DNA of 64,000 nucleotides from a virus (Duplodnaviria; Heunggongvirae; Uroviricota; Caudoviricetes), in IMG/VR virus record IMGVR_UViG_3300005613_000005, positions 91,213 through 155,212 of that record, one strand, 5' to 3'. Both the position numbers and the translations under genes were made by a program. A model generated the notes under the pieces. That model did not search any database, was not told where the DNA came from, and worked only from the letters and a program-made list of their open reading frames with translations. Each line of letters begins with the position of its first letter. Positions within the stretch are counted from its first letter, which is position 1. Shown piece after piece: positions 15,999-47,524 of the stretch.

Positions 15999-17315
15999 TT
16001 AGAACGTACGTATATGCATAGATCCTGTGCCGTTAGCATTTCCACCACTAGAATGTCTTTTCTTGATCTGAAGTTTGATTGCTAAATTCTCAGCACCAGC
16101 TATCTCGATACGACCAGATTCACTGAACTGTTCGCTGGTTCCAGGATTAGCAGAGCTGTTGATGTCAGTTTTATAAACTTTGATATCAACAGTATCATCT
16201 GTCACGATCCTCATCTGTGCGTTCTGATCACAGGCCCACTGATATCCATAGAGATAAGCGGTAGTACCAGCACCTACAGATATAGTAGCTGCTGTAACCC
16301 AAGGTGTAGCAGCAGCTGTGATAGTCTCAAGACCATCACCGGCAGCAGCGAGAGCGTCAGTAACTGTGTACTGTTCAGAACCAGGAGCAGACATTACGGC
16401 TGCTGTTCTTAAACGACCGTATGCGTCAAGTTGTAACCAACCATAATCGTATTCAGCGTCGACCAAACTGCCTTCTGAATCGTGTCTTACTGCGAAGATA
16501 GGAATACCGGCTTCACCAGTACTTGCGGCAGCGTCTTCTGCCTTAGTCCAAGAATCAACGTCACTTTCGATATTGTCGATACTTGTCTCGATGTTGTCTA
16601 AAGTAGTGCCCTGATCTGCTAATTCTGCGTCAATGCTAGTTAACAGAACTTCGATAGCCGCTAAGTCAACGACCATCGCTGCGGTATCTGCGTCTATGCT
16701 AGTTAACAGAACTTCGATAGCTGCTAGATCAACAACCATCGCAGCAGTATCTGCGTCTATGCTAGTTAACAAAACTTCGATAGCTGCTAAGTCAACTACC
16801 ATCGCTTGAGTATCAATGTAGATGTTGTCCAATACAGTATCGATCTCTGTAAGTTTAGTTAAAGCATCTGTGTCTTTAACATAAAGTTCGCCGTTTGCGT
16901 TAACGAAAAACGACGCATAATCGCCGTCAGCACTGGTGTTCGTGTTCGTTGGTCTACTATCAGACCTAACACTCAACACATAACTACCAATGTCAGCACT
17001 CTGATGTGCTGAATCTTCAGCTTTTTCATGACCATTAGCAACTTCAATATCAGCAACAACTTTTAATCTACCGTTTTCGTCGACCTGCAAAGGAGCGTAA
17101 TCGCCATCAGCACCGACCATAGATGTATCAGCGTCGTGTCGAACAGCCAGCATGAATATACCAGCATCTCCGTCACCATGCGCGGCGTCTTCTAAGTACC
17201 TACCAGAAATGATCAAACGACCTGACGAATCGAGCTGGAGCTCGCTCATCTGTTGATCACTTAGTGTAGGTAATGCACTTAGATATTGACCGACTAATAA
17301 CCCAAAATCGTCCAT
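15999..17315 (-). CDS. Virion fibre-like protein with AEDxAH/AVRxD repeats and coiled-coil stalk
   Basis: Three EDxAxxxGxxG...AVR modules and 21-aa tandem repeats. Confidence 0.7.
   Translation of the reverse strand: MDDFGLLVGQYLSALPTLSDQQMSELQLDSSGRLIISGRYLEDAAHGDGDAGIFMLAVRHDADTSMVGADGDYAPLQVDENGRLKVVADIEVANGHEKAEDSAHQSADIGSYVLSVRSDSRPTNTNTSADGDYASFFVNANGELYVKDTDALTKLTEIDTVLDNIYIDTQAMVVDLAAIEVLLTSIDADTAAMVVDLAAIEVLLTSIDADTAAMVVDLAAIEVLLTSIDAELADQGTTLDNIETSIDNIESDVDSWTKAEDAAASTGEAGIPIFAVRHDSEGSLVDAEYDYGWLQLDAYGRLRTAAVMSAPGSEQYTVTDALAAAGDGLETITAAATPWVTAATISVGAGTTAYLYGYQWACDQNAQMRIVTDDTVDIKVYKTDINSSANPGTSEQFSESGRIEIAGAENLAIKLQIKKRHSSGGNANGTGSMHIRTF
16624..16806 (-). repeat. Three coding 63-nt tandem repeats (AMVVDLAAIEVLLTSIDADTA)
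   Basis: tctgcgtc recurs at 16624, 16687 and 16750; variation is mostly synonymous. Confidence 0.9.
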
Positions 17316-19992: not shown

Positions 19993-21558
19993 TTATTCCT
20001 CCTCGTTTTTAGAATACCCGTAATGGGGTAGATCACTTTGCGGCGTAGAAACATCAGGACGTTCGACTGATACCGCAACATCATCTTCTTCATCTTTTTC
20101 TTTTTTGTTTGCTATAATCAAGTTACGTCTTAGATCTTTCATATGCCCAGCTGCGCCAGTTATAGCCTTGTCTTTTCCAATATGCGTAGATATTATTCTA
20201 CCGTTGTGCTTAACTTGATACATCCCTTTATCCTGTTGAATAGCTATGGAACCATGTTCAGGATGATTAAAATTTCCTGTAGCCTCGTTATATTTCCAAT
20301 CACTTTTGCTCATGTTAGTTTTATCATCAAGATCTCTTTCATCCAACAGTTCTTTTAACTCTAAAAAATGTTCTTTCTCTTCGTCTATTATATGCTGCAG
20401 GACATTCTTTAATTTTTTATTGTCAGTGGCTTTTAAATGCGCTTCGTACAAGTTGATCGCGTCTAATTCAGCCATCATATCTTGGCGTAACGCGGCCAAT
20501 ATCTCTTCTTCTGTTAACTTATCAGGAGTAGCATACTGCGATGGATTCGATTCTGCTTTTTTAAGATTGCTCGGTTTTTTGGTAGTTCTGGCATCGCTGT
20601 CCTGCGCCGCCTTCTTACGGTTATCAAGTTTTAATTCAAGTTCTTTTTTCTTATATTCTACTTCGAGATCTTTAAGTTTATTAGCTTTATCATACTCCAG
20701 ATCAAGCATTCGTTTCTTGTGATCGTTGTCTATCTGACTAACCTGAGATTTTATCTTGGCACTGTCGTATTCTAAGTCGTTCATACGCTGTTGATGCTGT
20801 GCATTAGATTCTGCCTCTTTATCTTTAACGGCGGCATCTCGTTCTGCAGCCGCTTTATCAACTTCCATCTTGGCGTTGTTCATGTCTATCTTGGACTGAT
20901 CAACGGGGTCGACCTGCGGTTCAGCATGACCGTGTACTACATGAGCTATCTCCTCATCGCTAAGACCCTCATCGCGTAGTATCTGTATAAGTTGCTCCTC
21001 AGAATTTCCTTGATCTTCAGCTTCTTCAAGAGATAGTTCTTGTTCTCCGTTTTCCTCAAGCGGCAGTTCCTGTCCTTGAGAATTGCCTTCTGGCGGTGCT
21101 GCACCTACTTTCCCATCCGCGTTTTCATCATCTTTAACTTCTTCTATTTCTTGTGCTTCTTCTAGGTCCATTATGGCTTCTTCACTACTTAGCTTTTTCT
21201 TAAGCTCTTCCCAACGTTCCACGATGCTTTTTCCTACACATTCTTTCTCGCCTTCACCAGGTCCCATACCTCTACCGTGTGGACCAGTCTCATCACGAAC
21301 ATGTCCTCCTGGCCCTATCTTTTTGTCTTTCTTAGATTTCTTTTTATCATCTTCATCTTTTTCTTTTTTTTCGGCGACGCGCGTATCTGCATCATGCGAA
21401 CCACCGTTGGCCATGTGTCGTTTTCCTTCACTCTCTTCATCTTGGTTCAAGTGTTTGACAGACAGTGCGGGTTGTTTTTCGAGCTCTTCATTACCATAGT
21501 CATACTCTTGTTTGCCATCGGCTTCACGATCAATTCGTTTTTTATCTTGTTTTTTCAT
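19993..21558 (-). CDS. Acidic multidomain head protein with an encapsulin-type ferritin-like (EncFtn/Flp) domain
   Basis: LRQDMMAELDAINLYEAH...VLQHIIDEEKEHFLEL at ~20310-20553; rest is low-complexity or coiled coil. Confidence 0.75.
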   Translation of the reverse strand: MKKQDKKRIDREADGKQEYDYGNEELEKQPALSVKHLNQDEESEGKRHMANGGSHDADTRVAEKKEKDEDDKKKSKKDKKIGPGGHVRDETGPHGRGMGPGEGEKECVGKSIVERWEELKKKLSSEEAIMDLEEAQEIEEVKDDENADGKVGAAPPEGNSQGQELPLEENGEQELSLEEAEDQGNSEEQLIQILRDEGLSDEEIAHVVHGHAEPQVDPVDQSKIDMNNAKMEVDKAAAERDAAVKDKEAESNAQHQQRMNDLEYDSAKIKSQVSQIDNDHKKRMLDLEYDKANKLKDLEVEYKKKELELKLDNRKKAAQDSDARTTKKPSNLKKAESNPSQYATPDKLTEEEILAALRQDMMAELDAINLYEAHLKATDNKKLKNVLQHIIDEEKEHFLELKELLDERDLDDKTNMSKSDWKYNEATGNFNHPEHGSIAIQQDKGMYQVKHNGRIISTHIGKDKAITGAAGHMKDLRRNLIIANKKEKDEEDDVAVSVERPDVSTPQSDLPHYGYSKNEEE

Positions 21559-22175
21559 TACTTAATTCCTTTGCTCAAGTTATCTTTGGCCCATAAAGGC
21601 TGCAAATTACTGTAATGACAAGCTTTTTTGAGCTGTTCTCTGTCATTGAGGTCAAACTTGCTTAAAGGTTTAACGTGGTCTATGTGCCAACCGTTTCTAG
21701 TCCAGTTGTCCCAAGACATGCCCGGTTTAAATTTGGACTCCAGATGCTTCTTAAGTTCTTCTATAGTACAGCCTAGGTCTCTAACGGCGGAGCCCCGTTT
21801 TGAGTTATTTTTGAGGGCACGATTTAATCTAGAACGCAAACAGGATGACAATTTACGTTGAATATCATTATGATATTTATCTATAAAATATTGCTTGTGC
21901 TTATCTCTACGTAATAAACGACTATGTTTATCACAGCATATCCTAGTACAAAATTGTTTATCTTTCCTTGTTTTATTGAACATAGATCCACAATATTTGC
22001 ATTTAATAGGTAAATATGATACTTTTTTATATTTACTGATAAGTTTCCATTTTTTATTTTTATAATTACTGGAAATACATTGTTTACAGATAGATTTACG
22101 TCCATATCTTGCTGTTCCTAGATGAAAATCATCCAAAAACATGTTTCGTTTACATTGGTTACATTTCTTCTTCAT
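21558..22175 (-). CDS. HNH homing endonuclease (prasinovirus endonuclease VII-like family)
   Basis: LGCTIEELKKHLESKF..GMSWDN...WHIDHVKPLS.F...CHYSNLQPLWAKDNLSKG; AT-rich. Confidence 0.9.
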   Translation of the reverse strand: MKKKCNQCKRNMFLDDFHLGTARYGRKSICKQCISSNYKNKKWKLISKYKKVSYLPIKCKYCGSMFNKTRKDKQFCTRICCDKHSRLLRRDKHKQYFIDKYHNDIQRKLSSCLRSRLNRALKNNSKRGSAVRDLGCTIEELKKHLESKFKPGMSWDNWTRNGWHIDHVKPLSKFDLNDREQLKKACHYSNLQPLWAKDNLSKGIK

Positions 22176-26209: not shown

Positions 26210-26854
26210 TTATTTAACTTCTTTAAAGTAACGGGTCGTCTCCCACAGATCGCGTACTTTTTCAAAATCTCCTTCTTCGATCTCCACGTCTCGCGTTATT
26301 GGTGATTCGATCAAGAATATCTGGTTCACGTTTGTATTCTCAGACACGTCCTTGATGTTGTCCAGATTGTCGTCCATGAACCCCTGGATATTGTATTGTT
26401 TGGATAAGTTTCTGATTTTCTTAGCTTTATCTTTCTCAAATATCAGTTCATGATAGGGTAAATCATTAGAGAATATCCACAAACGAGTTTGCTCCTTATA
26501 CTGTTCATCGCGAGCTGTCATCAAGATTATATGGTAACCTAACTTATCAAAAGCGACTAAAGCTTCTCTAGCGTGAGGTAAGAGTGGCATTATAGCGTAT
26601 ATACCGTGTGGCTCCCACTCTTTAAACGTGGCGAACAACTCTTCACCGGTAACACTGTTGCCCCTGACATCAGTAACGTTTAGATCGACAAAGTTGTAGG
26701 TTTTAATGTCGTTATGCGATACTGAAGTTCCTTTAAGTTTATTCTGAAGCCAAGTAAGCGTGTATAAAAAATCACCTATAACACCGTCCATGTCGATGAC
26801 GATAGCTTTTGGTTTAGTAACACGCTTTTTTCTTTTAGGGGCTTCACTGACCAT
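26210..26854 (-). CDS. HAD-family 5'(3')-deoxyribonucleotidase-like phosphatase
   Basis: IVIDMDGV (motif I), ILMTAR (motif II), K (motif III), FMDDNLDN (motif IV). Confidence 0.85.
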   Translation of the reverse strand: MVSEAPKRKKRVTKPKAIVIDMDGVIGDFLYTLTWLQNKLKGTSVSHNDIKTYNFVDLNVTDVRGNSVTGEELFATFKEWEPHGIYAIMPLLPHAREALVAFDKLGYHIILMTARDEQYKEQTRLWIFSNDLPYHELIFEKDKAKKIRNLSKQYNIQGFMDDNLDNIKDVSENTNVNQIFLIESPITRDVEIEEGDFEKVRDLWETTRYFKEVK

Positions 26855-28578
26855 TATTTAATTCTCCATTTACCTTTTATCACGTTAATTAACTGACGAG
26901 AACCATTAGGATAAACGATGCAAGAAGTATGCGCCCACGATGAAGGCCCCTGATTGTAGGATAATTTAAGTCTAGTAGACGTACCGACGACCCAAGCTCC
27001 TCTAAGTATCTCTGGTGAATGAGTATGGGCTGTAACAGATTGACCGTATGCGTTCTCCATACCGCGTGTGCTTCCTCTAGCACCATTAGCACCCTTATCG
27101 CCGTGGGCTCCTAACTGTATGCGAGCGATAACATAATCGTCATCTCGTCTCAACCACCTGATCTTCTCACCTCTTTTTAACCCTAACTGCTCACAACCAA
27201 ACTTTATAGGATCATGTCCGTCTAGAAATGCCCTGGCGAGATCTAGACTAAACCTGTGGTTGTACGCATCGTTCGCATATTTGCACTCACACAGGTACGA
27301 TTCTAAAAACTCATCGTGGTTCGATTTCACGACCACTATCTCCTCAGAGTTCCATTTAGTAAGATCATTGAGGTCTTTAACCATATTCACGAACTCATCG
27401 CGCAGGTTCAGATGTCCTTTTTGTGCTCTCTGTGATCTAAGGATGATGTTATGTTCTTCATGATGGTTGATCGACAAACCGTCAAAAAGATCGTGAAGTA
27501 TCAATCGTTTAGGTTTCAATAATTTAGTCATCTCTTTCCAACACTGAACGACCGTATCGTTGGTGGACCCTGAATGCCAATCACCAAGGACAAACGCTGC
27601 CGGTTCTATGTCAGCGACCGCTTCACTAGAATATTCTTTTCCAATATCAATAAAGTTACCATCTTTATCGGCCTGTATCTGTCTAAAATGATATATCTTA
27701 TCGTCCTCGATCTCAACTATTATAGCTCCCATGATATGATCGTGTTCTGCTATGACTGCGGTTCGGTCACTCATATAACGTTCTGAAACGTAGTTCGGTA
27801 GCGTGATAGCACCAGTAGTCATCACGGCGTGAGTTGACCTATTGTTACCGGTAGCAACAAACTTCAAACGCTGTTTAGGAGAAGCATATATGAACGTGCC
27901 ATCACGTTGTCCTATCCTGGTCAACGAAGTGATCGGATCGATATGTTTAGCACTCAGTTTGATCGTATTGATATGTATGTTACTGTTTAAACTGACGTTC
28001 GCGACCACTATGTTCTCTATAGGAATTTTAGGATCTACGAAACCAAATTTGTTAACGCTAGCAGCAGGATCAGAAGCTACCAACACCAGAAGTTCAGCGT
28101 TATGAATTTTGCTATAGTTCTGAATGCTAGCTAAAAAATTAGCGTCAACCGAACAACCACTAACAGCAGTAGTAACTATAAAACGCTTAGCATCTTTGAT
28201 CTTCGTTCTAAGACGCTGTATAGCTTTAGGGTTAAATATCGAATCGTCCAATATACTTTTAAAATTCTTAGGAAATTTCTTGCGTGCGGCAACCTTCAAT
28301 CTACCCAACGACCCATGATGGTGAGAAACCATATCCTTAGTATATACCGACATGTCCGTGAACTCGTTCATTGTAGGATATCGTTTTAATTTAGCACATA
28401 CATCAGCGTATTTTTTGACCATCTGTTCTTTTTTGCTGATTTTCTTGTTGTGTTTTTTCTTGGTTGGTTTTTTCTTGATTGATTTTTTCTTTTCTGCGAT
28501 CTCGTTAATTATCTTTTTAATTTTTTCTCTGGGCACTGTTGGTTTTCTCTCAGTTGTTTTTATTGTTCTTTTAGCCAT
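26854..28578 (-). CDS. Calcineurin-like metallophosphoesterase with N-terminal basic/HTH region
   Basis: GDWH, HDLFDG, SNHD, HGD, AHTH motifs; KLKRYPTMNEF...HGSL HTH-like repeat. Confidence 0.8.
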   Translation of the reverse strand: MAKRTIKTTERKPTVPREKIKKIINEIAEKKKSIKKKPTKKKHNKKISKKEQMVKKYADVCAKLKRYPTMNEFTDMSVYTKDMVSHHHGSLGRLKVAARKKFPKNFKSILDDSIFNPKAIQRLRTKIKDAKRFIVTTAVSGCSVDANFLASIQNYSKIHNAELLVLVASDPAASVNKFGFVDPKIPIENIVVANVSLNSNIHINTIKLSAKHIDPITSLTRIGQRDGTFIYASPKQRLKFVATGNNRSTHAVMTTGAITLPNYVSERYMSDRTAVIAEHDHIMGAIIVEIEDDKIYHFRQIQADKDGNFIDIGKEYSSEAVADIEPAAFVLGDWHSGSTNDTVVQCWKEMTKLLKPKRLILHDLFDGLSINHHEEHNIILRSQRAQKGHLNLRDEFVNMVKDLNDLTKWNSEEIVVVKSNHDEFLESYLCECKYANDAYNHRFSLDLARAFLDGHDPIKFGCEQLGLKRGEKIRWLRRDDDYVIARIQLGAHGDKGANGARGSTRGMENAYGQSVTAHTHSPEILRGAWVVGTSTRLKLSYNQGPSSWAHTSCIVYPNGSRQLINVIKGKWRIK

Positions 28579-33020: not shown

Positions 33021-33875
33021 CTATTGGTCGAATATTATGTAATCAGCTATAGCACCATAAGTAGGATGCAAGATCGTAAAATTTGCTGACCGATTACACG
33101 TAGCCTGTACTATGGTCGCTATTTTTTTGTCAGGAGATCGATTGTTCAGACGCGCCGTTAATCCCAGTTTATATTCGGCATGAAAGTTACCGACTATGAT
33201 AAAAAACTTATTTCGACTGATATCTATTAAAGAATGATAGGCCATCGTATCGTCCCACACTGAATGCGCCGCAAAAAAATTCTTTGTCGCACCGTCAAGC
33301 ATATCGTGCTTCATGTATTTCATGGTACTTTTGAAGCGCTTGTAGTACAAGTCACCACCGACACTAAAGTCTTCTGGCAATAATTTCTTTTCCTGCTCGC
33401 TCAACGTGCATAAACCCTGCATGGCAATCTTATGCACTAACGCGTTGGGAGCATTGATGCCATACACGCGTCCACCAGAAGTTACCGCAATCTCTATCAG
33501 CGGTTCATAATACGCGAACGACGTTTTTCCCCATTGCATCGCTTTTAAAAAATCCGCCTCGTTCTTACCACCGTTCAAAAATAAATCTAAAGTTCCTTGA
33601 TCTATCCAGGATACGAATTCTAGGCCGACGTCGATCGATCCATGTTTGGCTACTTCGCTGATTACATCCAGTTGATTTTTGTGATGGACAGCGCTGTCAT
33701 GCTTCTCACCAAAAACTATGATATCATAGTTTAACAGGTCCTTTACGAGAGTCTGTCTATCAATAAATTCACCACGATCTGTCGAGAAAATATTACGCAT
33801 GCTATTACGATCCGCCTCAGTAATCAAACATAAAAGCATCACTAAAATAGAATATCGCAAGATGCTTACCCACAT
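33021..33875 (-). CDS. chaN: ChaN-family haem-binding/uptake protein (EreA/Tiki superfamily) with signal peptide
   Basis: DIIVFGEKHD, VGLEF, FL..MQW...YYEPLIE, VYGINAP, WDDTMA, VGNFHAEY; N-terminal hydrophobic leader containing Cys. Confidence 0.85.
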   Translation of the reverse strand: MWVSILRYSILVMLLCLITEADRNSMRNIFSTDRGEFIDRQTLVKDLLNYDIIVFGEKHDSAVHHKNQLDVISEVAKHGSIDVGLEFVSWIDQGTLDLFLNGGKNEADFLKAMQWGKTSFAYYEPLIEIAVTSGGRVYGINAPNALVHKIAMQGLCTLSEQEKKLLPEDFSVGGDLYYKRFKSTMKYMKHDMLDGATKNFFAAHSVWDDTMAYHSLIDISRNKFFIIVGNFHAEYKLGLTARLNNRSPDKKIATIVQATCNRSANFTILHPTYGAIADYIIFDQ

Positions 33876-33954: not shown

Positions 33955-35421
33955 TTATTTTCCAACGTTCTTTAAGAAACAGTTGAATCTTGGTGTGTAA
34001 ACAAACAGAGCTCCATAAAGTACGATGGCGAATTCAAGAGCGGTTGACACGATAGCAAAATTGATTTTGCTAAGAGGTGCTAACTGTTTGAACTTCATGC
34101 ATTCTGCACTCATGTCGAGTAAGAAAGCTTCACCAAGGCCAGGAGATTTCTGTCCTGAGTCCACGAGAGTAAGATCAGCAGGATCATATTTGAAATTTCC
34201 TACGAACTTCTCTGTTCCAACAGCTCCGCCAGAAGCAGAACGGTAAACTTTAAAGTACTTGGTGTTAGCAGGTACGTTAGCTACTGTCAGGATCAGAGAT
34301 CCGTTAGCATCTGGGTTACCGTTTACGGTTGACTGAATAGGAGCACTTTCACCAAAGTCATTGACTGCAGTGATTTTGTACTGGTAAACACCACCGGAAG
34401 TAAGCTGACCAACAGGACTGACAGCGCCACCAGTGTTGTGTCCACAAGCAAAAGTGCCAAGCGCAGGAGCGTTAGCGTTAACGGCCTGTGTCCTATACTG
34501 AGCTCTAGGACGTAAGAAAAGGTTAGGTTTAAGATCTACAGTACCAGCAGTAGTTGTGATCTTAGATACATCGTAGCCAACTGCTTGACCAGCGAGACCC
34601 GGAGCACTTCTAAACTGTGGATAGAACTGTTTTACGAACGCACTGATAACAACTGGTTCAGCGTGTAATTGATTTGGAGCACCGAAGTTTTCCAGAGCAA
34701 TAACAGCCAGTCTTTCAATGTCGTCCTGCTGCATAACAGCACCAGCGAGATCCTGTCCGATTGATGACCAATCGCCAAAACCTTCAAAGTCTTTAGATTT
34801 GTGCTGAGCGTCATCGTCGCCTTTTAACAGCTGCTGAAGCAGACCGTTCATCTTGATAGAATTGGCTGGAATATCACTAACAGCACCGTTCATAGCACCA
34901 GAAGCAATGTTCATGTAGTGAGCATGTCCCCAATAAAGTTCTCTTTCGATATGCTTTAAGAGATGCATTGTTCCTTCTTTTGCTTGCTGAGCTACGATAT
35001 CGCCAACAGTTGTTCTTACTAGTGTCATCTGATGAGATACTTTTCTGCGTGTTCCAAAGAAAACGATTCTTTGTCCATCACGAATGTAAGTGCTGTCTTC
35101 CTGTTGAGGAGCACCACCTTCACCCATGTATGGGGAAGCGTCAGAACCATAACCAATCAAACGATTGTACTGTTCAAACAGATTGTAAGCTTTATCAATG
35201 CTTACTGCTGGCCAGAATTTTAAGTTTTTCATGTCAAAAGTCACGGACTTGAGTGTTGACTCAAGAGATTCGGCTTGAAGCACACCACCATAAGTTAGGT
35301 CAGTGGGTTTCCCAGCTCCACCGTAACCGGCTGTGATAGCCTTGTTAAGAGCTTCAATGTCTTCAGGAGTAACGAGTCCGTTTTCAATTCCCTGTAGGAT
35401 TTGATTCATTTGTTCGTTCAT
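33955..35421 (-). CDS. Major capsid protein (K/A511/SPO1/phiYS40-type) with Ig-like insertion
   Basis: K-AITAGYG...LQAESLE, FEQYNRL..YG, LYWG, YQYKITAVN..GESAP, KFKQLAPLSK. Confidence 0.92.
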   Translation of the reverse strand: MNEQMNQILQGIENGLVTPEDIEALNKAITAGYGGAGKPTDLTYGGVLQAESLESTLKSVTFDMKNLKFWPAVSIDKAYNLFEQYNRLIGYGSDASPYMGEGGAPQQEDSTYIRDGQRIVFFGTRRKVSHQMTLVRTTVGDIVAQQAKEGTMHLLKHIERELYWGHAHYMNIASGAMNGAVSDIPANSIKMNGLLQQLLKGDDDAQHKSKDFEGFGDWSSIGQDLAGAVMQQDDIERLAVIALENFGAPNQLHAEPVVISAFVKQFYPQFRSAPGLAGQAVGYDVSKITTTAGTVDLKPNLFLRPRAQYRTQAVNANAPALGTFACGHNTGGAVSPVGQLTSGGVYQYKITAVNDFGESAPIQSTVNGNPDANGSLILTVANVPANTKYFKVYRSASGGAVGTEKFVGNFKYDPADLTLVDSGQKSPGLGEAFLLDMSAECMKFKQLAPLSKINFAIVSTALEFAIVLYGALFVYTPRFNCFLKNVGK

Positions 35422-36182
35422 TACTTATCTCCTTTTAAGTTATACTTTTCAATAATTGCCTGAAGATCTCCGCCTGTCTCTGCAGTGCTTATATCTAAGG
35501 TGTCTACTTCTTTTCCGGACTTCTTCAACTCAAATAATTTACTGGCGACTTCACTTTTGCTCAACGGTTCAACTTCTTCGCTCTTTTTAAGTGGAACGAT
35601 TCCGTCTATACCTTTTTTAGCAACAGGTTGGTCGGCCATTTTCTCAACAACTTCCATTAATCCAGCGATCTTCTTTTCTAAACCGCTGATGGCGTCGTTA
35701 AACTGTGATTTTAAAAGTTCATCTCTCTCGTCAAGAGATTTCTTTAAATCTTCAGCTTCATCTTCAGATTTTTTACAAGCTTTCTCAGCTTCTTCTTTTT
35801 CAGCTTCTTCTTTTGCAGCTTCTTCTTTTTCAGTTTCTTCTTTTTCAGTTTCTTCTTTTTCAGTTTCTTCTTTTGCAGCCTCTTCCGATTTTGCAGCTTC
35901 TTCATTGATACCTTTTTCCATATCAGCTTTCTCAGCTTCGTCGAGCACGCCTTTTTCAACTTCCTCTTTTTTAGCTTCGTCGTCATCATCGTCGTCATCG
36001 TCGTCGTCTTTGTCTTTTTCTTCTTTGCCGATACTGCCGTTGGAAGGTTGACCCGCAAGGCCATCACCAGGACCTTCAATCTTAACTTCAGAAGCAGCGA
36101 AACGAGATTTCTTCAGATCTTCGATCTCAGAAATTGTTTCGTCGATGAGGCTAGTAAGACTCTTAATTAATTTTTCGTCCAT
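35421..36182 (-). CDS. Prohead scaffolding protein
   Basis: Very acidic, between protease and MCP, repeated LKKS motifs; start at ATG 36182 after AAGGAG. Confidence 0.75.
   Translation of the reverse strand: MDEKLIKSLTSLIDETISEIEDLKKSRFAASEVKIEGPGDGLAGQPSNGSIGKEEKDKDDDDDDDDDDEAKKEEVEKGVLDEAEKADMEKGINEEAAKSEEAAKEETEKEETEKEETEKEEAAKEEAEKEEAEKACKKSEDEAEDLKKSLDERDELLKSQFNDAISGLEKKIAGLMEVVEKMADQPVAKKGIDGIVPLKKSEEVEPLSKSEVASKLFELKKSGKEVDTLDISTAETGGDLQAIIEKYNLKGDK
35791..35880 (-). repeat. Six coding 15-nt tandem repeats (xxKEE)
   Basis: tcttctttttcag(c/t)t units. Confidence 0.85.
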
Positions 36183-36207
36183 ACTATTCTCCTTAATAGT
36201 TGTAAGA

Positions 36208-36621
36208 TTACTGTCCAAGTCCAACCAGGTCATTCATCCCTTTAACTCTAACGAGTTCAGCAGAAGTACCAATTCCTTCATTTCCATCCTGAACAGAAAC
36301 GTCATTAGCAAAACCACAACAGATAGAGAACATCTTTACAGCAACAGCTGTATCGAATACATCTGCGATTGCGTCGTTACCAGCAGCATTCTTACTGAAA
36401 ACGATGTAACCAGGATTTGCAACTCCGATTCCTAGGTATGGAGAACTAGCGTCAGAAACCCCGCCCATGGGTTCTTGGATACTTGCAGCCTGATACTTGA
36501 TCAGAATGTCGTCGCCACCGTCGTCAACGATAACTTGATCTGCTGTATGTGAATTTACAGTGAGACCTTCTAGTTCAGCTGCACGGGCAATTTTGTCTAA
36601 AATTTGTACTGAATTTGCCAT
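36208..36621 (-). CDS. Putative minor capsid/decoration protein
   Basis: Gly/Ala/Val-rich, in capsid operon, AAGGAG RBS. Confidence 0.55.
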   Translation of the reverse strand: MANSVQILDKIARAAELEGLTVNSHTADQVIVDDGGDDILIKYQAASIQEPMGGVSDASSPYLGIGVANPGYIVFSKNAAGNDAIADVFDTAVAVKMFSICCGFANDVSVQDGNEGIGTSAELVRVKGMNDLVGLGQ

Positions 36622-37526: not shown

Positions 37527-38495
37527 CTATATTAACTCGAAAATTTTAGCGAACGGAAAGGATTTATTGCAGTGACGACACTTGACCTGATTGCTCATGT
37601 ATACCTGTTCTTTACCACAACTAGGACATGTTATATACTTGAAATCGTCTTCTAACGCTTCACGTTGGAGTACCGTACCGCCAGTACGATTGGTGGGTGC
37701 ACTAACTCCGCCATAACCAGCGCATAATGCTTTAACTAATTTATTGATTTTATTTATATTTTTATCAATCTTATGTTCTAGTGCTTTCTCAACGATATCT
37801 TTAGGATCAATGTTTGGAAAGCATTTTTCGATGCCAAGATCGTTTACTATCTTTTGAATTTTTTCGACGTTGGTTTTTATCTTGTTCGCACTCGCGTTCC
37901 TCGTTATGTGTCGAAACGACGGTACATCTGTCTTTGCCAAGTGCATCACCGATCGTATGAGTTCCATGTCAGCTTTCTCTTGATCCGGATTAGCATTTTT
38001 TTGCAGGTTGATAGGCTCTGCTAAGGTCGCCTGGTTGGCCGGCGTAAAAGTAAGCGCGACAGAATGGATCTTGGTTCGAGCCAGTAATGAAGGATCTTTG
38101 ATACCGCGCTGTATAACTCCCCCTTCAACTGAAGTTTTTAACTTAAGTGGAGAATCTTCCTTATGAATGTTCCTTAATATAGCAGCGGCGGCTTTCGCGT
38201 TCTGATGATCATCGTTGTATAAATATCCCTTACAATAGATATAAGGTGTCTTAACTTTCTCCCAATAATACCTATGCCTATCATTCTCGCAATCTTCTTC
38301 CTTAAATATCTTCTTAGCTTCTGTTATACGACCTATAGAATTAAAAAATCCTTTACCATGGTTATCATTCCAACGACCTTTTCCAACTTCTAATTCACTT
38401 ATATCGGCACCTTCGATCGACAGCATCTCGCCTTGCGAATCTCTCAATTGTGAGCCCGCTATACAGTCCAACCACATTTTATCATTTTTAGGCAT
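37527..38495 (-). CDS. Prohead protease with C-terminal capsid-like arm and zinc ribbon
   Basis: WNDNH (His), LKTSVEGG (Ser), ALTFTPANQAT; position upstream of scaffold/MCP; start at ATG 38495 after GGAG. Confidence 0.85.
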   Translation of the reverse strand: MPKNDKMWLDCIAGSQLRDSQGEMLSIEGADISELEVGKGRWNDNHGKGFFNSIGRITEAKKIFKEEDCENDRHRYYWEKVKTPYIYCKGYLYNDDHQNAKAAAAILRNIHKEDSPLKLKTSVEGGVIQRGIKDPSLLARTKIHSVALTFTPANQATLAEPINLQKNANPDQEKADMELIRSVMHLAKTDVPSFRHITRNASANKIKTNVEKIQKIVNDLGIEKCFPNIDPKDIVEKALEHKIDKNINKINKLVKALCAGYGGVSAPTNRTGGTVLQREALEDDFKYITCPSCGKEQVYMSNQVKCRHCNKSFPFAKIFELI

Positions 38496-38514
38496 AATAA
38501 GACTCCTAAAAGTC

Positions 38515-38523
38515 ATTATACCA
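38515..38523 (-). promoter_or_regulatory. Extended -10 promoter TGGTATAAT of the head operon
   Basis: Matches TGnTATAAT; no clear -35. Confidence 0.55.
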
Positions 38524-41327: not shown

Positions 41328-42401
41328 TTAATTCATTTCGATTCGTATCCCATAATTCCTTAAAAAATCAATAACATATTTGACTAACTTCTTATTTTTA
41401 CCAATAATTTCAGGTACATGAACTCCATGTGCTTTAAATTTTTTCTTAGCTATTAACTTAACCATCGCTACAGCTGGCAACCCGGTCACGCGAGCCATAG
41501 AATGGTTAGTTCCATCATGCTCATCGTACACGATCGTCTTTATCTTTTTGTTCTCGTTCTTAGATATAATCTCTAATACGCTCATGTCACGATACGCACT
41601 CGTCATTTTCCATTCATTTGTCAACATCTTGACCGTTTTCTCTAAATTATTAGGAGAAAAATATTCGTTTTCTTTGAGCATACGTATGTAATTAAAATGT
41701 TTATCGTATCGCAGTGTTATCTCATACATGTTTTTAATCGGTAGAGTAACCAACAAGGAACGTAAACCATCAGAAACAAAACCACTGGTCTTTAAATTGA
41801 GTTTATCGTTGTGATATAAATAATTCAACATGAACGGTTCCTCAACTACTTCTTCACCGTTTCTGATAACGCGAGCTGGACGCGTATATTCTTCGACGAT
41901 ATCGACCGGTGAAAAAACGGCCTTGTAATCAGCGCTTTTATCTAACGGTAACCCACCGACCCATATACTACACGTATCAATGTCTTTATTGAATTCATGA
42001 TGATAATGATATCCAGCAAACAAGTGCGATAATCCCGGAGCGAAACCAAAATCTGCAACAACACACACGTTATTCTTTTTTGCAAGTATATCTAACTCTA
42101 AAAAATCTTCTGGCATAAACGAAAAATCAACTACGGTTAATTTATGTTCTATACACATCTTAAGTATACGATATCCCATAAAACCAGGCATAGCATTGAC
42201 AATTATGTCTTCGTTGCGCAGTACACTGTTTAATACATCATCGTCGTTTAGGTCTGCCTTATATCTATGTTGGGTTTTACATTTTTTAAGATTATCGTCG
42301 TTAACGTCGACGACCGCGACCTCTAGCGTTTTATCTTTTTGTAGTTCGTTCGTAACAAAAGAGCCAATTAATCCGGCCCCTAAAACCATAACTCTTCGCA
42401 T
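41328..42401 (-). CDS. Saccharopine dehydrogenase / lysine 6-dehydrogenase family oxidoreductase
   Basis: VLGAGLIG Rossmann motif, GFAPGLS, VGGLP, FSP.DIVEEYTRPAR, DGLRSLL, TLRY..H, MARVTG. Confidence 0.9.
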   Translation of the reverse strand: MRRVMVLGAGLIGSFVTNELQKDKTLEVAVVDVNDDNLKKCKTQHRYKADLNDDDVLNSVLRNEDIIVNAMPGFMGYRILKMCIEHKLTVVDFSFMPEDFLELDILAKKNNVCVVADFGFAPGLSHLFAGYHYHHEFNKDIDTCSIWVGGLPLDKSADYKAVFSPVDIVEEYTRPARVIRNGEEVVEEPFMLNYLYHNDKLNLKTSGFVSDGLRSLLVTLPIKNMYEITLRYDKHFNYIRMLKENEYFSPNNLEKTVKMLTNEWKMTSAYRDMSVLEIISKNENKKIKTIVYDEHDGTNHSMARVTGLPAVAMVKLIAKKKFKAHGVHVPEIIGKNKKLVKYVIDFLRNYGIRIEMN

Positions 42402-42444
42402 ACACACCCCTTAAAATATTATACAGATGTGTAGTAACGTATAG

Positions 42445-44355
42445 TTATTTATCGTTTTTCTTATTCAAGGGATTAGCTACTGGCTTATCACCTATCTTAA
42501 GCGGTTTAGATGCTGCACCAACACTCTTTGCAGTTTCCTGTAATCCTTTTTTCCCACCAACAACACTGTGAGCTGCAGCGTTTGCCTTATCATTCATCAT
42601 GGTATCATGAACTTCTTGTTCACGTTTATGACTACCTTCAGCATGCTCCATCTGTTGTTCCAACATCTTCTGTTGCTGCTCCATCTGACCTTCAACCTGT
42701 ACATCTTGTTTTTTCTGTCGATCGATAGTTAACAATAACTGTTGCCAACCAAGAAACGCAGGATCAGAGGGTATATATTGAAGTTCACGTTTTTTAGAGG
42801 CACCTTTGTCACCAAAGAAATGCTCGCGTATCTCACCGCGCGTCATATTCTTCTCAATCAACATCCAGAATGCCTGATTTAATGGTAGATCACATCCAGG
42901 AATCTTTATCGGTTTCTTCTGTGCTGCGGTAAGAAGATCGTTCAACGAACTGTGAACAGTCATCTCAGCTTGAAGCTGTTGGACTAACGTTTGAGGTGTT
43001 TCTTCTTCATATCCTATGAACTCAAACTTATATTTTTTAGCAAGTTCTACATCCAACGAAGGAATTATATCGCAATTGATAAGATCTTCAAAAAACATCA
43101 ACAACGGATATAGTCCGCGTTCACGAGAATACTCGATCTTGTAAGCATTATTCGCCTGTTGCATCGGAGCTCTTCCTGTCAACGAGGTAAGAAAATCGAG
43201 GCCTAATTCTATAGGATCTATCTGGAACTGGGTACATATCGCGCGCATGATGTGACTGTTGAAGTTGATATATTCCATGTCTTTAGCAGAACCTGCCATC
43301 GGAACCCAGTTTATATCTTCTAGTCCAGCGATGATCGGTGTTTTCCACGCGTGCTGAGCACCGTTTATAGTGTTGTAGAACTGCCTGCGAAATGCTGTCA
43401 GTTGACTCTGAGTTACTGTACCTTTAAGATGTAGTATACCACGGGCAGCTTGACCGTGCGTAAAGAAATTAGCGTTGTAATTTTCAGCATTTAAGTGATT
43501 AGTCACGTTGACGATAGCCAATTCTAACGGAGAATAACAATATCCCATAGAATCAATAAAATTCTGTGGATTATACAACTTAAATACCATATCCTCATCA
43601 CCAAAAATCGCTAATATGGTCTGATCAAGCGATACCTGAACATATTTGTAATATTCTAAGTCTTCTTCATTTATAACCTGATTTTCTGCAGGATCATTGT
43701 TGCTACCGATCCGATATTTACTATGACCTGCCTTTAAAGAACTCTCAATTACTTCTTTAGAGCTTTTCTTATTGACTAAGTATACAGATTCAGCCGGTAA
43801 AGGACGAAAACGATGTAAGCCACCACTGCGAGTCTTAACTTTCTCAATAGCCACATGACCGAACGTGAGTGCGTCACGAGTGCATTTCTTTAAAAAAGTA
43901 CCGAACAGCATCTTATCATCCGGTGGCGTATCCTTCATGCGTCCACATCGATATATGAAATTTTCTAACTTCTTGATTTCCTCTAGTTCCTCATCCACTA
44001 TCTCTTCTTTTTGATCGCGTTTGACAAACCTAAAACCCATCTTGAAACGATCGTGTTCAGGGCGAGAAAGTCTCAGTAAAGTATCAGTTCTAGCTTGAAT
44101 AATCGCAGATACTAACCAATCCCTTATTGACACATCTTTTAGCGTCTTGTTAGACAACCTTGAAGCACGATGCTTGTATATAACGCTCTGAGAAATTTGA
44201 TCAAAATACGGATCAGAAAGCATAGCTTTCTGACCGATCTGCTTGCTAGCATCATGATCGTTCTCAGGTTTATCAGGTAAAGAATCAACATCTGTTTTTA
44301 GCATATCATCAATCTGTGCTTGCTGAGTCTTTCTTAGCCAATCAAAAATTCCCAT
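42445..44355 (-). CDS. Portal protein
   Basis: RDALTFGHVAIE, GYCYSPLE, NANFFTHG...GIL, FRRQFY..INGAQHAWKTPI, FQIDPIELG. Confidence 0.92.
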   Translation of the reverse strand: MGIFDWLRKTQQAQIDDMLKTDVDSLPDKPENDHDASKQIGQKAMLSDPYFDQISQSVIYKHRASRLSNKTLKDVSIRDWLVSAIIQARTDTLLRLSRPEHDRFKMGFRFVKRDQKEEIVDEELEEIKKLENFIYRCGRMKDTPPDDKMLFGTFLKKCTRDALTFGHVAIEKVKTRSGGLHRFRPLPAESVYLVNKKSSKEVIESSLKAGHSKYRIGSNNDPAENQVINEEDLEYYKYVQVSLDQTILAIFGDEDMVFKLYNPQNFIDSMGYCYSPLELAIVNVTNHLNAENYNANFFTHGQAARGILHLKGTVTQSQLTAFRRQFYNTINGAQHAWKTPIIAGLEDINWVPMAGSAKDMEYINFNSHIMRAICTQFQIDPIELGLDFLTSLTGRAPMQQANNAYKIEYSRERGLYPLLMFFEDLINCDIIPSLDVELAKKYKFEFIGYEEETPQTLVQQLQAEMTVHSSLNDLLTAAQKKPIKIPGCDLPLNQAFWMLIEKNMTRGEIREHFFGDKGASKKRELQYIPSDPAFLGWQQLLLTIDRQKKQDVQVEGQMEQQQKMLEQQMEHAEGSHKREQEVHDTMMNDKANAAAHSVVGGKKGLQETAKSVGAASKPLKIGDKPVANPLNKKNDK

Positions 44356-44404: not shown

Positions 44405-47400
44405 TCAAACAGACCAGAGAAATCCCCCATCACCACCTATCTCATCCTCTTCATCTTCTTCACTGTCTAATTCATTTGCAGTACCAATTTTGCCGACTTT
44501 GGACGTATCAACTTCTTCACTGAACGGTATACCCATACTTTCTGCAAATTCACCGGCCGACGGTGTACGATAAAACTGATTGTTAGCATACACACCAACA
44601 CGATGATCAGATTCTGCTGCTAGCGCTGTAAGCATAGTTGAGTGCCCTAAAAGCATGTTAAGCGGATATCGTATAGCATCAAGCCAATGATTAAAAGCAT
44701 CTTCAGGTTGATCGGTAACTTCACCAGCCGTATTTAATTTAAAGTGATACAAGCTAAACTCTTCTATCAACGACTGACATGTCTCTTTAGCCACGTGAAA
44801 TTTAGTATCTTCAGTACCAGGAACTCGTAATAACCGTTTTATTATCTGCACGCCTGTCATAATCTCAGGCTTAACGTAGTTCGCCACCGGTAATCCTATC
44901 TTCTTCATCTCTTCCATAGAACCAGGAACAGCGGCGTCTGGAAAGTATAGTTGACATTTGTAAGCGTGATGATACTTAGTTTTAACATAATTTGCCCAAG
45001 TAGGATCACTTACATAACACATACCATCTGCGCGAACAGCGTATACGTTCTCTCTCTTGTCCAAGAAAAAGTACACCACCGTACTCGGTGCTGACCATCC
45101 CCAGTCGATCCCCGCGTAGCACGGCAACTTCAACTGGTGGCATTTCTTAACGAATATATCGTGAGTACATTCACCGGGATATTCTACACCAGTCAACTTC
45201 TTCCACATCTCGTTCCACGTGTTAACGTGTACTCTCTCATCAAATTCCCTGTATATGATACCTTCTACTGAGGGTTTAAGATTCATGAGCTGAGCCAATG
45301 CCCAATCTGGACCTTTTCTAACCTTATTCATTATGTCTTGTATCGGCTTCAACATCGGTGATTTTGAAGTTTGTTTTTTAGCGTCTCCCAAGCATATAGC
45401 AGCTGCTGGACATTTCCTACACTTAGATCCCGGAAACGTATATCGCATGAACTCTTTCTGTTTTTGCTTACTTTTTAACTTGTATTCTTCTTCTGTTAAT
45501 ACTATGAAATCTTCTTGAAGTACCCATAGATCAGTCTCATCAGTACCTGATCTATCATCAGGACATCTTTCAGAAAACTCCCAGGCTGTCCATTTTCTTA
45601 CCGTACGCCCTTCAGTATCAGCGTTTTCCATCTGCTGATTCATCAGTCCATATCGTGACTTGCGCGTAGATATACCAACACGAAGCGCGTGTTTAGTTCC
45701 TTTTGAATCCAGCATACCAGAAATTTCACCAAAGGCCTTAACTCCTTCGCCTGATACTGTATCTATCTCGTCGACCACTACCATGGGAACGTGAGGACCA
45801 TTACATTGTAAACTATTAATACCATTAACTAAAAACGAATGATCAGAGCGATTATTTCCTTCAACTTCAATGTCTATTAAGCGCTGTTTACCTAAAAATT
45901 CAATATTTACTACAGATAAACTATCTTTACTCCATTTTCTAAACCATTGTTTCCACTGTTTATTACTAAATTGTCCATCGGTCACTTCTTTCAATAAAAC
46001 GCTACAACCCGTCTTACTAATATCAATTTCATCTCCCATATCAAATGAATATAATTTCTCAGGAACAATATCTGTTGATATTTTATAGTACATGGTTGGA
46101 TGAACGTAACGCTGTACAATGTCACGCATAGTTCGTGTATCACTGCTGTTAAAACGAATTACGTTATATTTATGCGAATTACGAACATGAGCTGATTTTA
46201 AATTAAATTTACTGTGAAACATATTCAACAGTTTATTACATTCTTTATCAGTTAAAGAACAAGTCGATAACTCTAATTGTTGACCAGCAATACCATCATC
46301 TTGAATCCAAAAAGCCAATGCAATCTCATCTATGTAATCAACCAATTGATCAGTAATTATTTTTTTATTTATTCGTTGATCGGTAAAAAGTTCAACTAAA
46401 AATTGCAACTCTTCAGTTGATTCTGTAATTAATTCTTTGATATTGCTTCCATAACCAGATTTTTTATCTCTAATTTGATTAACTTTAATATGTTGCTCAA
46501 TAATTTCGCGGCAATAATTAAAGTACTCATGCTGCTTGATCGAATGTCCTTTATATAATCTGGCATTGCCAATTTGCTTACGATCTTTTATTTTAATACT
46601 TAAATGAGCATCTCCCAACATCATACCGATTAAAGCAGAACGCCACTGTTGCTGATTAAAATTAGGTTTATTCCAACGATATTTAGTTTTGCTACTATTC
46701 TTCTTAAACTGCGGAGCGCGTACAATTTTCGTATTGTAATTAATATCGCATAGTCGTTGCCAACCAAAACGCGTCAATATTTTATTGTCATAACCACCAG
46801 TACTTTCTAAACCATCTTCTAATGTAATCTTATAAGTATCAGAATATTTAGTCCATTTGTCGATAACTTTTCGATATGTGCTTTGTGGAAATTCACCTCG
46901 CATATAATCCCAAGATGCTATATAATCGCCAATTCTTACAGAATCAATGGAATGATATCCTCCACGTTTTGTTTTTACTATTGATTGTGGGTCAACACAA
47001 GCTTTCAGCGTACAAGGAAGTACCTCTAACGATACAGTCTGACCATTAACATTAAACAACGACTTACTCATGTTAGCTTTATTTAATATTCGCTTGTCTT
47101 CTGCAAGGTTAGAAGGGGTAACAAGCGTTTTCAAACGCCGATTGTACAAGAAATTTTTAATATAATCATAACAGCGAGTTGCCTGCGCCATAACTGCGCC
47201 AACGTGAACAATATCCCGTTGATCATGCAAGACGATCATCATCTCAACTATGGCCATCCCTAAAGTTTTTCCCGAACCTCTTCCAGCAACCAATAACAAC
47301 TCGTTGATCATCTCCGGATTCTTGTTTAAAACCGCAATCTGATATATCTCCCATATAGCATTGAAAGGGTTAGTATCTGCATACCTAGAAACCGTACAGT

Positions 47401-47524
47401 CAGGAAGATGAATGTCTAGATGAAACTTGATCCATTTCTTGAATTCTGCTTTAGTTTTGCAGGGTTTTAATAATAATTTCTTACGTTGTTCGTAAGTTAA
47501 GTTCTGAACTTTCTTCTTTGCCAT
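44405..47524 (-). CDS. terL: Terminase large subunit interrupted by an intein
   Basis: Walker A GRGSGKT, Walker B VVVDEID, nuclease GIDWG and HWLDAIRY. Confidence 0.93.
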   Translation of the reverse strand: MAKKKVQNLTYEQRKKLLLKPCKTKAEFKKWIKFHLDIHLPDCTVSRYADTNPFNAIWEIYQIAVLNKNPEMINELLLVAGRGSGKTLGMAIVEMMIVLHDQRDIVHVGAVMAQATRCYDYIKNFLYNRRLKTLVTPSNLAEDKRILNKANMSKSLFNVNGQTVSLEVLPCTLKACVDPQSIVKTKRGGYHSIDSVRIGDYIASWDYMRGEFPQSTYRKVIDKWTKYSDTYKITLEDGLESTGGYDNKILTRFGWQRLCDINYNTKIVRAPQFKKNSSKTKYRWNKPNFNQQQWRSALIGMMLGDAHLSIKIKDRKQIGNARLYKGHSIKQHEYFNYCREIIEQHIKVNQIRDKKSGYGSNIKELITESTEELQFLVELFTDQRINKKIITDQLVDYIDEIALAFWIQDDGIAGQQLELSTCSLTDKECNKLLNMFHSKFNLKSAHVRNSHKYNVIRFNSSDTRTMRDIVQRYVHPTMYYKISTDIVPEKLYSFDMGDEIDISKTGCSVLLKEVTDGQFSNKQWKQWFRKWSKDSLSVVNIEFLGKQRLIDIEVEGNNRSDHSFLVNGINSLQCNGPHVPMVVVDEIDTVSGEGVKAFGEISGMLDSKGTKHALRVGISTRKSRYGLMNQQMENADTEGRTVRKWTAWEFSERCPDDRSGTDETDLWVLQEDFIVLTEEEYKLKSKQKQKEFMRYTFPGSKCRKCPAAAICLGDAKKQTSKSPMLKPIQDIMNKVRKGPDWALAQLMNLKPSVEGIIYREFDERVHVNTWNEMWKKLTGVEYPGECTHDIFVKKCHQLKLPCYAGIDWGWSAPSTVVYFFLDKRENVYAVRADGMCYVSDPTWANYVKTKYHHAYKCQLYFPDAAVPGSMEEMKKIGLPVANYVKPEIMTGVQIIKRLLRVPGTEDTKFHVAKETCQSLIEEFSLYHFKLNTAGEVTDQPEDAFNHWLDAIRYPLNMLLGHSTMLTALAAESDHRVGVYANNQFYRTPSAGEFAESMGIPFSEEVDTSKVGKIGTANELDSEEDEEDEIGGDGGFLWSV
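45806..46999 (-). mobile_element. 398-aa intein with LAGLIDADG endonuclease, terminal Gln
   Basis: TLKA|CVDPQSIV...LIDIEVEG...SFLVNGINSLQ|CNGP; GMMLGDAH and FWIQDDG motifs; AT-rich. Confidence 0.9.

Follow-up and report, generated by a model that had tools for sequence, protein, structure and literature searches.

The tailed-phage genome IMGVR_UViG_3300005613_000005 (Caudoviricetes; 176,243 bp in IMG/VR) carries, in its head and neck gene module, a gene for a ferritin-like domain of the encapsulin-associated type (EncFtn), which is inserted into a conserved coiled-coil protein and bordered on both sides by putative capsid-protease sites. The gene, designated P0001, lies on the minus strand at 19993..21558 of the analysed window (the whole stretch of 64,000 nucleotides, positions 91,213 to 155,212 of the record), and its product is a modular, highly charged protein of 521 amino acids (aa; 59 kDa, pI 5.0). 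Taken as a whole, the data are best explained by packaging of P0001 into the phage head, its cleavage there, pairing of the ferritin modules, and oxidation of Fe(II), a reading to which we assign a probability of about 0.4. The stricter proposal, that the phage loads a catalytically competent EncFtn-type ferroxidase into its own HK97-fold capsid, where the capsid protease would free it, is more doubtful and is put forward tentatively.

Judged by its sequence, the segment aa 336–418 of P0001 (20305..20553, minus strand; 9.7 kDa, pI 4.6) is a genuine two-helix half-ferritin domain of the EncFtn family. The Pfam profile EncFtn-like (PF22277), which has a curated cut-off of 27 bits, scored 29.4 bits against the whole of P0001 and 34.5 bits against aa 330–420; a six-frame search of the genome gave 33.4 bits, and no second ferritin-like region was found in the genome. 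A preliminary description of this DNA, made from the sequence without database searches, had claimed an EncFtn domain at 20310–20553 (aa 336–416, with a quoted peptide covering aa 347–405), and the hidden Markov model (HMM) search that it proposed confirmed the identification. The phmmer comparison with PDB chains agreed, the best match being EncC of M. xanthus (7s8t, E 4.8e-17), followed by EncFtn of P. furiosus (5n5e, 1.4e-8), EncB (7s5c, 1.6e-6), NE0167 of N. europaea (3k6c, 2.5e-5), and the R. rubrum protein (5da5, 1e-3); the P. furiosus chain 2e0z was also matched. In the AlphaFold2 model of P0001, the domain forms a hairpin at residues 350–416 (helices 350–378 and 380–416), with block values of the predicted local distance difference test (pLDDT) of 64–86, and a second hairpin is absent from the protein.

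Since the alignment with 5n5e is free of gaps and 5n5e is numbered like the R. rubrum protein, the ferroxidase ligands E32, Y39, E62, and H65 can be equated with E364, Y371, E394, and H397 of P0001, and the outer metal site H57, E61, and E64 with H389, E393, and E396. In the R. rubrum EncFtn, Glu32, Glu62, and His65 of two chains bind two irons, with Tyr39 nearby, whereas E31/E34 form the entry site and H57/E61/E64 the outer site (He 2016). Its E32A and E62A variants still oligomerise. The preliminary description had placed the ferroxidase ligands in the motifs AE, NLY, and DEEKEH. The metal-ligand codons, those of E393 and E396 included, span 20368..20469 of the minus strand (E364, 20467–20469; Y371, 20446–20448; H389, 20392–20394; E394, 20377–20379; H397, 20368–20370), and the ligands of the ferroxidase centre and the outer site, including the residue equivalent to Y39, were invariant in 13 close relatives of the domain with approximately 50–60% identity. 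With its ligands and outer site in register, the domain resembles the two-helix half-ferritins of known structure (EncC 7s8t, 5n5e, 2e0z, and 5da5). It also resembles the s-FLP type (N. europaea NE0167, 3k6c), a half-ferritin without a known loading peptide; however, the latter is a free-standing cellular protein of approximately 95 aa, whereas the P0001 domain forms part of a larger protein from a phage structural module and has EncC as its nearer relative.

Two copies of the domain with two Fe(II) ions were predicted to form a symmetric dimer with the ligands at the interface. The identity with M. xanthus EncC is approximately 50% over the domain. The ipSAE value was 0.81 versus 0.02 for the best of three controls; among proteins of known structure, 20 of 30 one-chain pairs and 1 of 23 single chains reached the mark set for this value. 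Contact agreement between runs was at least 97%, the partner pLDDT was at least 79, and the predicted interface included residues 31, 32, 35, 39, 58, 61, and 65. An oligomer model had been suggested in the preliminary description; EncFtn dimers have already been solved, so the prediction speaks of likeness rather than binding and may reflect what the predictor had learned from those structures.

The rest of P0001 belongs to a family of conserved, highly variable coiled-coil proteins of SPO1/Mx1-related myophages with genomes of approximately 150–180 kb. None of the nine backbone homologues carries a ferritin segment. The blocks that they have in common with P0001 are an N-terminal motif, the E-I-A-H-V-V-H-G-H...V-D-P-V-D-Q-S-K block, and the H-K-K-R-M-x-D-L-E-Y repeats, and some of them also possess the C-terminal strand-rich domain. 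In P0001, the first 110 residues are disordered and acidic and include, at aa 8–28 (21475..21537, minus strand), the motif R-I-D-x-E-x-D-G-K-Q-E-x-D-Y-G-x-E-E-L-E-K, which is found in 7 of the 10 members of the family and has a single occurrence in the genome. This motif may be a targeting or binding signal; a search for it in the other proteins of this genome, as a common head-targeting tag, found none. The conserved backbone core (20581..21009, minus strand) consists of a small helical unit at aa 184–217, which bears the E-I-A-H-V-V-H-G-H / V-D-P-V-D-Q-S-K block, and of a single 109-residue helix at aa 218–326 (pLDDT approximately 90), which bears the repeats. The ferritin module is followed by the conserved C-terminal domain (aa 419–495; 20074..20304, minus strand), made up of five strands and a helix with the motif W..N...H-P-E-H-G...H-N-G. 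Foldseek found no match for the whole P0001 model in PDB at E≤0.001, and fold searches with the C-terminal domain gave no clear match (best Z 5.3, in a PDB-based search; best E 0.03, in BFVD); in the Atlas, it had look-alikes only of the DUF2188/DUF2969/DUF7468 type, a result that says nothing for novelty of the fold. No match to P0001 was obtained by tblastn among 50,697 phage records. In PHROGs, P0001 matched nothing, and one homologue matched a single family that lacks annotation.

A scan of IMG/VR revealed 38 further loci with the backbone gene, whose open reading frame (ORF) was readable in 37. The gene directly follows the adaptor gene in 36 of these 37 relatives, the adaptors being 45–65% identical to that of the phage studied here; a protein with sigma-70 region 2 and a 312-aa protein are encoded upstream, and a 318-aa protein downstream. 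The length of the backbone gene product varies from 229 to 513 aa. The ferritin-domain HMM had no match within 4 kb at any of these loci, so that the insert is unique to this phage within the family. The same fusion, for which the preliminary description had suggested a survey of related phages, was thus present in none of the 37 relatives, and the uniqueness of the insertion had escaped that description.

The insert keeps the reading frame and is flanked by homologous backbone on either side, and its GC content (0.365) does not stand out from that of the gene (0.41) or the window (0.39). These observations, together with the intact ligands and the CheckV rating of the record as complete, make it very improbable that the fusion arose by chimeric assembly or represents a functionless acquisition in decay. 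What could be adduced for such an artefact is that the fusion was seen in one contig only and that the reads of two DNA runs from one study, which contain only small shares of the sequence, yielded two near-identical contigs of 200 nt (20080–20279 and 21025–21233) and none across the insert junctions. No RNA run containing the sequence was listed.

Small helical modules are exchanged at other positions of the family as well. DUF5661 (PF18905), whose 65 residues form two helices and include the conserved elements E-x-E-H-T and D-H, is located near the N-terminus in seven of the nine homologues, where P0001 has low-complexity sequence. It was detected in P0002, P0003, P0006–P0010, and P0021. DUF5661 replaces or accompanies the half-ferritin in head-module proteins, P0021 having both, and could itself bind metal; no DUF5661 was found in the genome of this phage, and our literature search found no paper on it. 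Such swapping would be in line with a structural role, in which the ferritin-like insert serves as a metal-dependent oligomerisation module (dimer or decamer) that bundles the coiled-coil backbone in a scaffold, core, or neck, iron oxidation being irrelevant. The assembly of EncFtn is metal-dependent and H65 is needed for its oligomerisation (He 2016), a strong homodimer was predicted, and a 109-residue helix is typical of assembly proteins. Nevertheless, we regard a clamp of this kind as unlikely: 37 relatives manage without the module, the invariance of all catalytic and outer-site ligands, including Y39, exceeds what pairing needs, and cutting at the flanking sites would detach the module from the backbone that it is supposed to bundle.

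An exhaustive search of 1.84 billion representatives returned 506 relatives of the ferritin domain at E≤1e-3. In the nearest of them (47–63% identity), the first helix is preceded by an S-[ND]-P-S-Q-Y-x-T-P block, which is lacking in the other matches, and these nearest relatives are located on phage-like contigs wherever the context is readable. The insert comes from an EncFtn group that is phage-borne wherever context can be read, a point likewise absent from the preliminary description. The gene for P0021, which combines DUF5661 with EncFtn, is situated directly after the portal gene of its contig (L005). The locus of P0017 (L006) is of the same type as that of P0001, with an adaptor, a homing endonuclease, and a 520-aa protein followed by P0017 itself, and the contig also encodes RtcB and a Phi812-type tail tube; P0017 has five cleavage-motif sites, all in its N-terminal extension (p=0.02). 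Gene fission at this locus was considered and rejected, since the 520-aa protein before P0017 is not homologous to P0001. P0013 is encoded near an intein-bearing gene for a 1072-aa protein. More distant half-ferritins were found on 30 IMG/VR contigs. One of them forms the C-terminus of a 689-aa protein with NUDIX and DUF6496 (L035:8174-10243), encoded 2.5 kb upstream of a homologue of the major capsid protein (MCP) gene with a homing endonuclease between, and another (L023) is located 1.3 kb downstream of the gene for a 1452-aa portal protein, with two small ORFs between. On the half-ferritin tree, the bearers of S-[ND]-P-S-Q-Y stood together and were separate from another clade, in which IMG/VR sequences abound.

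A cleavage rule for this type of head was derived from proteins other than P0001 (in the motifs below, the arrow marks the putative cut). The MCP of the phage (33955..35421, minus strand), which is similar to SPO1 gp6.1 (approximately 32% identity), has the N-terminal sequence A-L-N-K27↓A28-I-T-A-G-Y-G-G; the corresponding sequences are A-L-N-K↓A-L-E-A-G-H in SPO1, E-L-R-K↓A-M-E-A-G in Mx1, and A-I-K↓A-F-T-T-G-Y-G in a Twort-like phage. The full-length MCP of phi812 (5lii_P, 463 aa) reads ...V-V-K24-S25-F-Q-T-G-Y-G, and the deposited mature chain (9row_B, 439 residues) begins with S25, right after the aligned lysine; the start of this chain was used as the anchor of the motif. The annotated SPO1 scaffold contains 11 [LMIV]-x-K-S sites, and the Mx1 protein encoded before its MCP contains 5. 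In the phage studied here, an acidic 270-aa protein (35421..36233, minus strand) is encoded directly upstream of the MCP gene, in the scaffold position, and has seven L-x-K-S sites versus 0.68 expected (Poisson 7e-6), which is the highest rank among 265 ORFs. The prohead protease (37527..38516, minus strand; phrog_1028; phmmer E-values of 1.7e-29 against the Mx1 protease and 6e-7 against the SPO1 protease) contains K-L-V-K263↓A264, after which its C-terminus (A-L-C-A-G-Y-G-G-V-S-A-P-T-N-R-T-G-G-T-V-L-Q-R-E-A-L-E) continues as a near copy of the N-terminal arm of the MCP. This mimicry, which recurs in a Twort-like phage (L078), suggests that the protease may be tethered in the shell like a capsid subunit. 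Because the MCP N-termini, the start of 9row_B, the enrichment in the scaffold, and the protease C-terminus agree, hydrophobic-x-K↓[A/S/T] has a sound basis as a rule for heads of this type. No statement on the cleavage specificity of the Herelleviridae prohead protease was found in our literature searches.

According to this rule, P0001 has four sites, VGK111↓S, VDK235↓A, LKK335↓A, and MSK418↓S, three of which (K111, K335, and K418) are located at borders between disordered and folded regions. The putative site V-G-K111↓S112 (21223..21234, minus strand) lies where the disordered N-terminal stretch of 110 residues ends. The putative site L-K-K335↓A336 (20551..20562, minus strand; flank NLKK) follows the long helix in a linker with pLDDT below 50, and the closest homologue, P0002, has DLKK↓S. 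The putative site M-S-K418↓S419 (20302..20313, minus strand; flank NMSK) precedes the C-terminal domain, and all four homologues that bear this domain have a counterpart at the aligned position (LEK↓A, LEK↓S, LEK↓S, and LQK↓A). The C-terminal site belongs to the backbone and not to the insert, which the preliminary description had missed. Six of the ten family members have a site within approximately six residues before a conserved W-x-x-L-K helix, and in P0002 the position corresponding to the insert is marked by three sites in a stretch of 15 residues. In the simplest reading of these sequences, the linker was open to the protease before the ferritin module entered it, and maturation would free a 9.7-kDa piece.

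The gene that follows P0001 (19494..19991, minus strand) provides a further motif-rich product. Its 165-aa protein contains three L-x-K↓[AST] sites versus 0.29 expected, ranking second among the 265 ORFs, and has a very basic C-terminal tail rich in lysine and arginine. The gene is translationally coupled to P0001: its ATG, at 19991, is 2 nt past the P0001 stop codon, and a GGAGG sequence is located inside the 3' end of P0001. These features fit a candidate internal DNA-binding head protein.

We propose that P0001, made late in infection, becomes part of the prohead, where it would be a core or scaffold-like protein or one destined for ejection. The prohead protease would cut it at K111↓S112, K335↓A336, and K418↓S419, freeing the ferritin module of 83 residues and 9.7 kDa. 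The modules would pair via a di-iron ferroxidase centre, to which E364, E394, and H397 of two chains would contribute, with Y371 nearby, and would oxidise Fe(II) in the head or just after ejection, limiting Fenton damage to the genome; encapsulin-type iron storage would not be involved. From the genomic context, we rate the chances that P0001 is packaged in the head as about even and those of release at the named sites as somewhat lower.

The context in question comprises several features. The term head-cluster protein, used in the preliminary description, proved apt for the position of the gene, which is separated by a single HNH homing-endonuclease gene (21558..22175, minus strand; phrog_1035) from the gene for a head-tail adaptor homologous to SPO1 gp6.3 and Mx1 WNM70332 (22192..23022, minus strand). 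P0001 has an AGGA ribosome-binding site upstream, and its start codon abuts the stop codon of the HNH gene. The fixed place beside the adaptor gene, the conserved motif sites, and the motif-rich basic neighbour point to a location in the head, as does the build of P0001, with a disordered acidic N-terminus, a 109-residue helix, and a small end domain. In addition, the interval between the adaptor and the gp6.4 homologue of Mx1 is occupied by genes for a GNAT/ART-PolyVal/NUDIX polyvalent protein of 1479 aa (WNM70333) and a kinase. Polyvalent proteins have been predicted to be packaged in capsids and injected (Iyer et al. 2017); no ferritin-type module figures in the domain catalogue of that paper, in which the terms "ferritin," "rubrerythrin," and "iron" each occur zero times.

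P0001 is similar to polyvalent and internal head proteins (T4 Alt, internal proteins, and Mx1 WNM70333) in being modular, in being encoded among head genes, and in having swappable enzyme modules. The T4 internal proteins are cut by the prohead protease at a short motif, and cleavage of P0001 would parallel this. The Mx1 protein occupies the same position after the adaptor gene and was considered as a homologue of P0001; however, there is no sequence homology between the two, and this candidate was rejected. P0001 differs in having no MuF or portal domain. No signature polyvalent domain, such as ART-PolyVal, was found in it, and it has one recognisable enzyme-type domain only.

Several points weigh against the proposed course. 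For this uncultured metagenomic phage, packaging is presumed from gene context. The backbone matched no recognisable family or fold, so that its putative role in the head is deduced from gene position. Both cut sites that the preliminary description had placed around the domain fit the independently derived motif, but P0001 itself is not enriched in it (4 sites versus 1.9 expected). An encapsulin targeting peptide (G-S-L or [LIV]x[LIV]GS[LIV]) was sought in P0001 and none was found. The entry-site positions E31 and E34 of R. rubrum EncFtn are occupied by A363 and D366. Some close relatives of the domain are encoded on phage contigs outside recognisable head modules, among them P0162 and P0163, whose phage-like contigs contain no recognisable head genes. 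Finally, the half-ferritin tree (180 domains, 75 columns) is poorly resolved and has a long-branch root, so no donor can be named.

The close relatives encoded away from head genes, the missing targeting peptide, and the unremarkable motif count would also be expected of a late auxiliary protein that is neither packaged nor processed and whose EncFtn domain detoxifies or buffers Fe(II) in the cytoplasm during replication and lysis, the position in the head module reflecting late timing. The gene for a ChaN/Tiki-type protein (PF04187) beside the MCP gene could then be a second iron-related auxiliary gene. We consider such cytoplasmic iron handling possible but doubtful. It leaves unexplained the insertion into a coiled-coil protein whose gene stands beside the adaptor gene in 36 of 37 relatives and the two protease-type sites at the domain borders around the insert, as well as the other phage half-ferritins that are portal-adjacent or fused to NUDIX near an MCP gene.

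HK97-type phage capsids are regarded as the ancestors of encapsulins, whereas encapsulin cargo has been viewed as something added by cells. The P0001 domain is an EncFtn member in its sequence, fold, and ligands; however, both features that define a cargo system of Family 1 encapsulins, the targeting peptide and the shell gene, are missing. Unlike EncFtn cargo, it is phage-encoded and located inside a 521-aa protein, has no C-terminal targeting peptide (the known types being LTVGSL and SLGIGSLK; PMC11202242), and is not accompanied by a Linocin_M18 shell gene. No match to the latter (PF04454) was found across the 176-kb genome at E≤0.01, whereas controls were detected, and the sole HK97-fold gene found in the genome was that of the SPO1-like MCP. 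The only HK97-fold shell at hand is thus the T4/SPO1-class capsid of the phage itself.

The nearest architectural precedent is the fusion of EncFtn with the shell protein in P. furiosus (fusion-FLP, 2e0z). There, as in P0001, EncFtn and a protein of an HK97-fold particle system form one covalent fusion, and delivery does not depend on a peptide tag. In P. furiosus, however, the fusion partner is the shell protein itself and stays uncleaved, whereas in P0001 the domain sits between two protease-type sites of a coiled-coil protein that is not a shell component. The idea of the preliminary description that the virion works like an encapsulin, as an iron store, finds no support, because EncFtn is only an oxidase and neither a loading peptide nor a shell gene is present. 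EncFtn itself stores no iron, in contrast to the lumen of the encapsulin (He 2016). A DNA-filled head would, in addition, leave little free lumen.

Our literature search found no published description of a phage-encoded EncFtn, which is not proof that none exists. The largest encapsulin census (2021) removed phage genomes as false positives (PMC8346489), and a 2024 review of encapsulated ferritins distinguishes four classes of encapsulated ferritin-like proteins, with phages unmentioned (PMC11202242). A 2026 paper, in the portion available, speculates that viral procapsids might co-assemble cargo-like proteins and gives no case there (PMC13669383). The locus described here, an EncFtn with intact ligands in a head-module protein and flanked by sites of the capsid-protease type, is a concrete test object and is of interest because it makes the link between procapsids and encapsulins testable. 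If the module were in the virion, it would be an enzyme cargo in a real virus capsid, and the question would arise of what iron oxidation does for a phage, for example whether it protects the genome or manipulates the host early in infection. On the stricter proposal, encapsulins would not have invented enzyme cargo, which would exist in true viruses as well; the two-way evolution proposed for procapsids and encapsulins would have a living intermediate, and the virion would bring iron chemistry into the host. The rule hydrophobic-x-K↓A/S could also help to predict processed head proteins in phages of the SPO1, Twort, and Mx1 types.

The head and neck module is encoded on the minus strand at approximately 11–48 kb of the window. 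Its genes are arranged in the order large terminase with an intein, portal, saccharopine-dehydrogenase-like protein, prohead protease, acidic 270-aa protein, SPO1-like MCP, ChaN, RtcB, several unknowns, a 499-aa protein with sigma-70 region 2, the adaptor of the SPO1 gp6.3 type, HNH endonuclease, and P0001. The large terminase (44405-47524, minus strand; 1039 aa) contains a LAGLIDADG homing-endonuclease/intein insert; intein-bearing terminases of a similar kind were found in L005 and beside P0013. The portal gene (42445..44355, minus strand) is followed by the gene for a protein of the saccharopine-dehydrogenase family (41328-42407, minus strand; PF16653 and PF03435), which is located between the portal and the head genes and may serve, as an auxiliary function, polyamine synthesis of the carboxyspermidine or homospermidine type.

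The ChaN/Tiki-superfamily protein is encoded directly after the MCP gene (33021-33875, minus strand) and was identified by PF04187 (E 7.7e-42, "haem-binding uptake"). The gene may be a second one related to iron or haem, or its product may be a protease of the Tiki type; as PF04187 is the Tiki/TraB superfamily by its Pfam name, an "iron module" with ChaN was considered and is kept here as a side point only. Further downstream, a 574-aa protein (26854-28578, minus strand) matched phrog_1745, "DNA transfer protein" (E 1.9e-97); by eye it shows a metallophosphoesterase-like H-D/G-D-x-H pattern, and it is 48% identical to its counterpart in the relative L001. The 499-aa protein, encoded two genes upstream of P0001 (23022-24521, minus strand), has a C-terminal sigma-70 region 2 (PF04542, 26.7 bits), is kept in the relatives, and contains one M-K-K↓T site at aa 44–47. 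Beyond P0001, a 438-aa protein (15999-17315, minus strand) contains three exact tandem copies of the 21-residue unit D-T-A-A-M-V-V-D-L-A-A-I-E-V-L-L-T-S-I-D-A and is likely a coiled-coil fibre.

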